Shown here piece by piece: positions 23,857 through 25,194 of a DNA stretch of 64,000 nt. The position numbers were made by a program, and so were the translations under genes. This DNA comes from a virus (taxonomy: Duplodnaviria; Heunggongvirae; Uroviricota; Caudoviricetes), in IMG/VR virus record IMGVR_UViG_2695420521_000002, positions 32,001 to 96,000 of that record, one strand, 5' to 3'. The notes under the pieces were generated by a model. That model was not told where the DNA came from. It worked only from the letters and a program-made list of their open reading frames with translations, and ran no database searches. How positions within the stretch are numbered: the first letter of the stretch is position 1; each line of letters begins with the position of its first letter.

Positions 23857-24024
23857 TGCAAATGGACATAACTGTAATATCGCAACACACTCTGCATTTC
23901 AGCTTAAAGCAGGCAATACAAAGACCTAATATTAATTTATGTAATAAAGATGCTTGTCACCTATTGTTAAGTGGCAAAAGCGAACGGTATAATCCCGCGA
24001 TTTTTTGTCGTAGGAAATAACTAT

Positions 24025-25134
24025 ATGCAACAGAAACTTCTGTTCCCAATAGTATTAATTGCCTTGACTTTGTTTGCCTGGCTAGGAAATACTTTCGGAA
24101 CAAAATGGGTAGTAATGAGTATTATCGGTTTTGGGTTAGGGTTTACACTTTCATTCAGCCGCTTCGGTATTGTTTTTGGCTGGAGAGAAATGTTAACACA
24201 AAAAAATAGTTACTATGTACGAATCCATTTACTAACTATTGCGATCGAAATACTATTGTTCACAATTTGCTTATCTTTCAGTCATTCCTTATTTGGAGAT
24301 AAGATGACTGGTAATATTATGGCAATAAGTATACCTTTCGTCGTTGGCGCTTTTTTATTCGGTATAGGAATGCAGTTGGCAGGATGTTGTGCATCAGGAA
24401 CCCTTTATTGTTGTGGTGAAGGGAGGCCTAGATTCTGGATTGTTTTACTTTTCTATGGCATTGGAACATTAATAGGAAACTCATTCAAGCCTGAATTATC
24501 ATCAATATTCCCTGGTCATATAGTAACAGTGAAAGATTTAACAGGAAATCTATGGACGGGTATGTTGATAAACTTACTCTTTGTTGGACTGCTCTATATC
24601 TTCTTTTGTTATATTGAGAGGAATAAAACTGGACAACTAACAAGTATTTTTACTTCTGGAAGTTTATTCTGGAAAGATAGCCATTTTACTGTTCTTAGTG
24701 GTGGTATTATAATTGCAATACTGAACTCCAGTATTGTTGCCATACATGGTTCTGCATGGACTATAACTGGAGCCATCTACGAAAGTGCTTTACATATTGC
24801 TTCTTTTTTTGGTTTATTCGAGGGTAATCCAAAACTCGCAAAACCTCTATTCATCAACCCAATGGTAGGCATGTTTGCCGCTGGATTACTGGGTGCGGCA
24901 TTTTCTGCATGTCTGCTCAGGGAGAGAAACAGAACGCCGTTAACCATTCAAAATATTCTTGCAGGAATAATTGGTGGGTTATTAATGGGGTGCGGCGGGG
25001 CGTATGCAGCATGTAATTTAGGCGGTTTTTTTGATGGGACTGCTTCGGGGAGTGTGCATGGATGGCTTTGGATGTTGATGGCTTTATGCGGAAGTATTAT
25101 CGGTATACGATTAAGAAAATTATTTAATATCTAA
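24025..25134 (+). CDS. YeeE/YedE-family membrane transporter (thiosulfate/sulfur-compound transporter-like)
   Basis: multi-TM protein with two Cys motifs (AGCCASGTLYCCGEG, MGCGGAYAACNLGGFFDG); start set to ATG 24025 with AGGAA RBS; strongly AT-rich. Confidence 0.7.
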   Translation: MQQKLLFPIVLIALTLFAWLGNTFGTKWVVMSIIGFGLGFTLSFSRFGIVFGWREMLTQKNSYYVRIHLLTIAIEILLFTICLSFSHSLFGDKMTGNIMAISIPFVVGAFLFGIGMQLAGCCASGTLYCCGEGRPRFWIVLLFYGIGTLIGNSFKPELSSIFPGHIVTVKDLTGNLWTGMLINLLFVGLLYIFFCYIERNKTGQLTSIFTSGSLFWKDSHFTVLSGGIIIAILNSSIVAIHGSAWTITGAIYESALHIASFFGLFEGNPKLAKPLFINPMVGMFAAGLLGAAFSACLLRERNRTPLTIQNILAGIIGGLLMGCGGAYAACNLGGFFDGTASGSVHGWLWMLMALCGSIIGIRLRKLFNI

Positions 25135-25194
25135 GGGGGATTGGGGTTTATGTCATTTTGTGTTTTTCAAAAAAAGACATATTCCCCAATTATT

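Follow-up and report, generated by a model that had tools for sequence, protein, structure and literature searches.

P1-like phage-plasmids occur commonly in Escherichia, Shigella and Salmonella, where attention has gone chiefly to the resistance genes that they carry. In the YeeE family of inner-membrane proteins, C91 and C293 are indispensable in YeeE of Spirochaeta thermophila (StYeeE), and their counterparts are essential in Escherichia coli TsuA, SoxT1B and YedE1E2 (PMC7449682, PMC11582611, PMC10812762), whereas StYeeE can do without a further cysteine, that of the LA loop (C22 in StYeeE, C25 in E. coli TsuA), which E. coli TsuA and SoxT1B require (PMC7449682, PMC11582611). Here we describe a YeeE-type gene in a 64-kb stretch of a P1-like phage-plasmid (the window, along which all coordinates are counted). 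The coding sequence (24025-25134, plus strand) specifies a 369-amino-acid (369-aa) inner-membrane protein with the YeeE fold (PF04143), which belongs to an Aeromonas-type clade; the open reading frame (ORF), a Pfam match and an AlphaFold2 (AF2) model are described below. That this is a foreign cargo gene encoding a YeeE-fold protein is nearly certain. To the fuller reading, in which it is a self-contained, horizontally acquired cargo gene ('moron') for an orphan YeeE-type conduit of small reduced sulfur species, we give a probability of about 0.6.

The foreign segment is delimited by alignment with P1 (NC_005856, blastn). The two sequences are homologous across genes 6 and 5 and across the gene-5 terminator as far as 23857, and again from 25227 within dbn; where the window has 23858-25226, P1 has 38 bp between the gene-5 terminator and the dbn 3' end. 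In 469 other P1-like plasmids homology restarts only at 25239, and the foreign AT-rich segment is therefore placed at 23858-25238 (about 1.38 kb), holding a promoter-like site, the gene and a hairpin and supplying the last ~14 codons of dbn, whose C-terminal tail is altered by the insertion (...TTAKQPYITASNSN in the window and ...ITQKPSRGNG in P1). Compared with P1, P7, SJ46, RCS47 and 14 further records, window 23000-27000 is 97-98% identical over only 58-59% of its length. The GC profile runs at 35-40% along the segment; the gene itself has 37.9% GC, with 31% at third codon positions, against 48-52% GC in neighbouring phage genes and a window mean of 47.1%, which places it within the lowest 2.3% of 1110-bp windows across the 64 kb. 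The left edge is an intrinsic-terminator hairpin (23829-23855, plus strand) that closes the baseplate/tail operon (genes 24, 6 and 5) and is common to P1: gene 5 stops at 23829, and next comes a perfect 12-bp inverted repeat (23829-23855; free energy -21.1 kcal/mol, z = -4.6). On the right lies the convergent dbn (25195-26181, minus strand), a homologue of P1 gp078 and putative glycosyltransferase with a weak Glycos_transf_1 match. A preliminary description of this locus had proposed an AT-rich, horizontally acquired gene, not known from P1, between the baseplate operon terminator and a convergent glycosyltransferase-like gene. All of this was borne out, the acquisition by the deviant composition and by the absence of the gene from P1, P7, SJ46, RCS47 and 482 of 484 P1-like plasmids; the interval then given, 23857-25194, is the whole space from the terminator to the dbn stop, and the gene proper occupies 24025-25134. 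A transposon or an insertion sequence (IS) as the vehicle was considered and rejected, as the repeat scan and junction alignment revealed no IS ends, terminal inverted repeats or target-site duplication at the insertion junctions. The best-supported reading is that the segment was acquired by illegitimate recombination in the gap between two convergent operons.

Membership of the YeeE/YedE family, which the preliminary description had asked to be checked with a profile search and which automated annotation had already assigned correctly, is supported by a full-length match to Pfam PF04143 (Sulf_transp; E = 2.9e-40, 139.2 bits against a cut-off of 27 bits, profile positions 2-310 of 310). The AF2 model built from a 76-sequence alignment (predicted local distance difference test 93.3, predicted template-modelling score 0.90) has four short helices at residues 49-59, 123-131, 247-260 and 331-340, corresponding to re-entrant elements, and shows the hourglass fold of YeeE. 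Foldseek against the PDB returned only the YeeE entries 6LEO, 8J4C, 8K1R and 6LEP (E below 1e-9, template-modelling (TM) score 0.70-0.80), the next match having E = 0.05, and hhalign placed the protein colinear with E. coli TsuA over residues 33-366 with a probability of 98.7%. The two cysteine motifs reported earlier are both present, as LAGCC122ASGT and AAC330NLGG; C122 and C330 are the equivalents of StYeeE C91 (LB loop) and C293 (LD loop) and are invariant in the alignment of 76 homologues used for residue conservation. An extra cysteine, C130, eight residues after C122, is invariant within the close clade (15 sequences). The protein fails every NCBIfam subfamily model, scoring 66.8 and 33.2 against the TsuA cut-offs of 400 (NF052577) and 645 (NF041049) and 72.7 against 350 for selen_YedE_FdhT (NF033796), which is the best NCBIfam model (E = 3.2e-20) with partial model coverage. 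As all of these scores lie far under their cut-offs, the protein is a superfamily member outside each characterised subfamily. The earlier designation as a sulfur-compound transporter thus stands at the level of the family and does not extend to either characterised subfamily, the LA-loop cysteine also being replaced by glycine. E. coli YedE (b1929; 4278-5483 of locus L103) aligns with its halves swapped, residues 228-362 of the phage protein matching YedE 22-164 and residues 36-160 matching YedE 227-350, so that YedE is circularly permuted relative to the phage protein and hence to TsuA.

The distribution of the insertion was surveyed in 18 P1-like phage records, 484 P1-like plasmids from PLSDB and 5,426 complete E. 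coli genomes. It is absent from all 18 phage records (P1, P7, SJ46 and RCS47 among them), from 482 of the 484 plasmids and from all 5,426 genomes; the two plasmids that carry it are both from E. fergusonii. Public assemblies index an identical protein in 60 blocks, and in all ten of the genomic contexts listed the gene stands 195 nt after gene 5 and before dbn. By source name, the 90% cluster comes from E. coli, E. fergusonii, Shigella flexneri and Escherichia sp. P1-like records without the insertion match the flanks at 97-99% identity, giving the presence and absence at one site that characterizes a moron. The gene is accessory and fixed in one sub-lineage of P1-like phage-plasmids. The preliminary description had held that conservation at this position across the phage family would speak against cargo; the position is not occupied family-wide, yet it is constant within that sub-lineage. 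In three records (L099, AP027926.1, and the E. fergusonii plasmids L002 and L003) IS1 interrupts dbn shortly downstream of the gene, and in the first of these the P1-like segment lies inside a chromosome-sized record of 4.69 Mb, either by integration or by an assembly join.

Some 30 Aeromonas species have relatives with 59-70% aa identity, as do Plesiomonas shigelloides, Citrobacter sp. JGM124, Photobacterium carnosum and Vibrio spp., and the next tier of homologues is only ~30-35% identical. Members of the clade are almost ubiquitous in Aeromonas, with scattered occurrences in Plesiomonas, Vibrio, Photobacterium, Citrobacter and the mobile elements of Escherichia. Aeromonas was rejected as the direct donor because its copies have 62-64% GC and are only ~68-70% identical. 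The closest allele (85% aa, 80% nt identity) follows an alpha/beta-hydrolase gene on other Escherichia contigs. It is represented by the P0002 cluster, from E. coli and E. fergusonii assemblies, and by a 2-kb contig (L089, Logan DRR517660), where it follows a BD-FAE gene in a non-P1 context; the last ~35 nt of that contig match several conjugative plasmids. Compared with this allele, the gene has a ratio of nonsynonymous to synonymous substitution rates (dN/dS) of 0.058, which shows strong purifying selection, most of the constraint having built up before acquisition. Mean column identity in the close clade is 74%, and none of the contexts examined has a disrupted reading frame. A near-identical gene, differing by one residue and with 99% nt identity, lies outside the P1 context in Escherichia sp. 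MOD1-EC7003 (L010, 1-3903; NZ_PTRE01000217.1). There its homology to the window begins at 23982, the -35 region being replaced, and the gene with ~100 bp of the dbn 3' end adjoins an IS91-family transposase and pemIK, a toxin-antitoxin pair of the PemK/MazE type, which shows that it later moved away from its P1 context.

Phage relatives were sought in INPHARED (50,697 phage records), BFVD, IMG/VR and PHROG. INPHARED yielded no full-length homologue, its six partial matches having at most 35% identity and three of them lying near the start of Shiga toxin (Stx)-phage records, where they may be host flank; BFVD gave neither a fold match nor a full-length homologue, IMG/VR no clade member, and PHROG a single weak match (phrog_19116, 44 bits). 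In the literature we found no paper that connects YeeE with P1, with phage-plasmids or with auxiliary metabolic genes, and none characterizing the Aeromonas-type clade.

The signals around the gene are compatible with autonomous expression. The ORF spans 23971-25134 (plus strand), and translation probably begins at the ATG at 24025, the start also chosen by the Prokaryotic Genome Annotation Pipeline in the E. fergusonii plasmid NZ_AP028818. A longer version starting at GTG 23971 (387 aa) was judged less likely because it overlaps the -10 element, while ATG 24025 has a Shine-Dalgarno-like AGGA, read from the sequence, at 24012-24015 (plus strand), 9 nt before it. The sigma-70 promoter-like site, TTGTTA-18 nt-TATAAT (23964-23993, plus strand), lies ~30 nt ahead of the start codon and matches the consensus at 10 of 12 positions; the expression in the lysogen that the preliminary description suggested would depend on this match. 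A scan for C1 operators that tolerated as many as 3 mismatches found none in 23.7-25.4 kb, as the preliminary description had stated; the nearest are at 18989 and 30857/30868, and 15 such sites occur in the whole window, where 0.36 would be expected by chance. No P1 late-promoter motif is present in the foreign segment. Between the convergent stops lies a long imperfect hairpin with 23-nt arms (25140-25190), which has a T-rich tail on the plus strand and may serve as a bidirectional terminator; its folding energy is -23.2 kcal/mol on the plus strand (z = -2.6) and -18.7 kcal/mol on the minus strand (z = -3.6), and it was not called by a strict terminator scan. A riboswitch or leader RNA was rejected: Rfam at E <= 1 gave nothing in 23600-26600 and only tRNAs in 8 homologue loci, and the upstream regions of 9 homologues had no conserved block in common.

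In the reading that we favour, the 369-aa inner-membrane protein encoded by the ~1.38 kb of foreign AT-rich DNA, which displaced 38 bp between the gene-5 terminator and the dbn 3' end, would be a conduit for a small, reduced inorganic sulfur species. Transport of a sulfur species is rather probable. Thiosulfate or a sulfane-sulfur/polysulfide anion would be the most likely substrate, the choice of any particular one being doubtful. The substrate could be passed along the pore cysteines, with C330 facing the periplasm and C122 lying centrally, and the clade-specific C130 may stand in for the absent cytoplasmic LA-loop cysteine. The protein would act without a dedicated TusA-like partner or borrow TusA, TsuB or YedF from the host. 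Transcription from its own sigma-70 promoter would be independent of C1 and of the late activator, and the gene could in that case function during lysogeny as a conversion gene related to nutrient acquisition or redox.

Several observations weigh against this reading. At the LA-loop position phmmer, BLASTP and hhalign agree in placing G48, which is invariant in the close clade and nearly so in the 76 homologues. The periplasmic LC-loop arginine (R215 in StYeeE, R223 in E. coli TsuA), which matters for thiosulfate capture, aligns in a poorly aligned region to S243 (BLASTP) or about S260 (hhalign); Aeromonas members have R256 near this position, and the phage protein has H256. Furthermore, E. 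coli TsuA requires TsuB, an essential partner encoded next to it (PMC11073785), and no such partner stands beside the phage gene. The promoter and terminator are consensus or folding matches only, and the seven promoter-like sites in the region are not significantly more than in shuffled sequences (4.7 +/- 2.3). DNA so rich in AT is moreover a typical target of H-NS silencing in Escherichia, and expression in the lysogen may therefore be low. Finally, Escherichia already possesses CysPUWA and TsuAB for thiosulfate, which makes any benefit of the phage gene less obvious.

A TusA-like partner, for which the preliminary description had advised a search, was looked for by tblastn with E. coli TsuB and YedF in the window and in the flanks of 84 homologue loci, and the idea was rejected: the window holds no TusA-like ORF (best E = 1.0), the flanks of the 84 loci hold no TusA-like gene, and nothing reached E <= 1e-3 in 78 loci, the lone match in the first 6 plus 31 loci covering 17 residues at E = 0.007. 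Nor did the Pfam neighbour tables of the homologue loci contain a TusA domain. The homologues are singletons with unrelated neighbours in Citrobacter, Aeromonas, Plesiomonas, Vibrio and a metagenome contig (L091), as is a distant-tier homologue in Pseudomonas; an attempt to read function from conserved neighbours accordingly gave no clue, since the neighbours differ in every genus. In Aeromonas sp. R6-2 (L005, ~7870-7900) a Fur-box-like sequence, GCAAATGATATTTATTTTCATTTG, lies between the homologue and a divergent TonB-dependent receptor gene, and it probably belongs to the receptor gene.

A true thiosulfate importer in the manner of TsuA/YeeE would hand its substrate through the pore-cysteine relay to a TusA-family protein of the host (TsuB, YedF or TusA) and add to thiosulfate assimilation in the lysogen. 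The fold and domain order are those of TsuA, the C91 and C293 equivalents are conserved, Escherichia hosts encode tsuB and yedF, and StYeeE can dispense with C22 (PMC7449682). However, the LA-loop cysteine, essential in E. coli TsuA, is here glycine, no clear equivalent of the arginine is found, identity to E. coli TsuA is only 26%, the TsuA models are missed by a wide distance (66.8 versus 400 and 33.2 versus 645), and 0 of 84 homologue loci have an adjacent TusA-like gene, whereas TsuB is essential and adjacent for TsuA (PMC11073785); we consider a TsuA-like importer unlikely. The two-cysteine proteins PmpAB/YedE1E2 offer another model, in which the phage protein would import zero-valent (sulfane) sulfur or polysulfide, raise cytoplasmic persulfide and alter redox defence. 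The wider subfamily retains only the C91- and C293-equivalent cysteines, as do PmpAB/YedE1E2 (PMC11582611), these two being sufficient and essential for polysulfide uptake by YedE1E2 (PMC10812762), and that system requires no TusA partner. Against such a function, the phage protein is one fused chain of 369 aa instead of two chains of ~130 aa, full-length EcYedE3/CpYedE3 did not speed polysulfide uptake (PMC10812762), and no persulfide dioxygenase or other sulfur-metabolism gene adjoins any homologue examined; we consider this substrate likewise unlikely. A speculative version of the cargo reading, to which we attach little likelihood, is that the phage-plasmid may spread a partner-independent YeeE-type channel for a substrate other than thiosulfate (for example, sulfide/polysulfide, sulfite or a selenium species), in which a C330-C122-C130 relay would replace C293-C91-C22.

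Selenium transport in the manner of YedE/FdhT, feeding the synthesis of selenoproteins such as formate dehydrogenase, is suggested by the rank of selen_YedE_FdhT as the top NCBIfam model (E = 3.2e-20) and by the similar chemistry of sulfur and selenium (PMC11582611), but the score is 72.7 against a cut-off of 350 with partial model coverage, the halves of E. coli YedE are in the opposite order and no yedF-like neighbour is present; such a role is very improbable. Another possibility is that the gene is a passenger without a role in the phage-plasmid lifestyle, either silent or neutral in Escherichia or exerting a membrane effect unrelated to solute transport, such as phage exclusion. Its rarity among P1-like elements (2 of 484 plasmids), the liability of strongly AT-rich DNA to H-NS silencing and the replaced -35 region upstream of the L010 copy would fit a passenger. 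Yet the frame is intact in every context examined and the protein identical in 60 assembly blocks, dN/dS is 0.058 against the 85% allele (though this reflects mostly constraint before acquisition), the pore residues are fully conserved, and a role in anti-phage defence was rejected as the PADLOC defence models gave no match. We regard the passenger explanation as quite improbable.

The remainder of the window contains further variation around the same backbone. A second break in P1 homology, which stops at 26181 and restarts at 26470 in ban, marks a second small AT-rich insertion (26182-26469, 37.6% GC), and it is these two insertions that set the window element apart from P1. The second contains a 100/101-aa ORF between ban and dbn (26178-26483, minus strand; phrog_12809, 156 bits), whose start and stop overlap ban and dbn. 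This ORF is found in the carriers L090 and L093 and not in L094-L097 or L100-L102, and its presence in only some carriers of the YeeE-type gene indicates that the two insertions are independent. Two more AT-rich islands, at 12100-13700 and 51100-53500, go down to 34.6% GC and overlap the stretches 8598-13082 and 51581-52995, to which the P1-like plasmid pMTY2330_NA1 has no match; both probably represent further cargo or variable loci. Further stretches unmatched in that plasmid are 2019-3281, 28215-29310, 31988-32413, 46141-46897, 47158-48014 and 57310-57917. The backbone shows mosaicism at about ten places, so that several loci are variable and the YeeE-type island is one among them. Upstream of the tciA-ban-dbn operon, two overlapping and oppositely oriented C1-operator matches (0 and 2 mismatches) lie at 30857-30884, an arrangement that fits the bipartite operator controlling ban in P1.

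As the lineage described here shows, the genes that P1-like phage-plasmids can transfer include one for membrane transport, from a family nearly absent from phages. Import of a sulfur or selenium species by the protein would give the lysogen a nutritional or redox trait through infection, and if the protein is a partner-independent channel for a substrate other than thiosulfate, with the cysteine relay proposed above, it would be the first sulfur- or selenium-uptake conversion gene to be documented in a temperate phage of enterobacteria. In that event the small and portable gene would also be a handy entry to the function of an orphan YeeE clade that is conserved across Aeromonas. Should the gene confer no phenotype, it would be one more neutral passenger.

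Compared with described transporters, the phage protein resembles TsuA/YeeE (E. coli b2013; S. thermophila YeeE, 6LEO and 8J4C) in Pfam family, in fold (TM score 0.72-0.80), in the N-to-C order of its halves, in its four re-entrant loop/short-helix elements and in its central cysteines equivalent to C91 and C293. It differs from them in being only 23-26% identical and far below the NCBIfam cut-offs, in having glycine for the LA-loop cysteine, a clade-invariant C130 and a predicted extra N-terminal helix (residues 3-24), and in lacking an adjacent TsuB/YeeD. With PmpAB/YedE1E2 it shares, across the wider group, the retention of only the C91- and C293-equivalent cysteines, and no TusA partner is needed there (PMC11582611, PMC10812762); those are two separate proteins of four transmembrane helices and ~130 aa each, often encoded near a persulfide dioxygenase gene, whereas the phage protein is one fused chain whose gene has no such neighbour. 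YedE/FdhT (E. coli b1929) belongs to the same superfamily and gives the top NCBIfam match by E-value, but its halves are circularly permuted, yedF lies downstream of it in E. coli and not beside the phage gene, and the score reaches only 72.7 of the 350 required.

The closest likeness is to the Aeromonas-type clade (A. hydrophila ATCC 7966 ABK37575.1, Plesiomonas shigelloides and Citrobacter sp. JGM124), with 59-70% aa identity over the full length, 369-372 aa, invariant G48, C122, C130 and C330, an FDGxASGS-HGW motif and a gene that is always a singleton. The genes of that clade are chromosomal with a GC content matching the genome (62-64% in Aeromonas), whereas the phage copy has 38% GC and resides on a phage-plasmid. 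As a piece of mobile DNA, the locus differs from other P1-like cargo in encoding a YeeE-family membrane protein and in having been inserted without an associated IS or transposon. In its remaining features it is like phage morons and P1-like cargo such as antimicrobial resistance genes, being a discrete insertion of deviant composition in the gap between convergent operons, with promoter-like and terminator-like signals of its own and a patchy occurrence among backbones that are ~97-99% identical.

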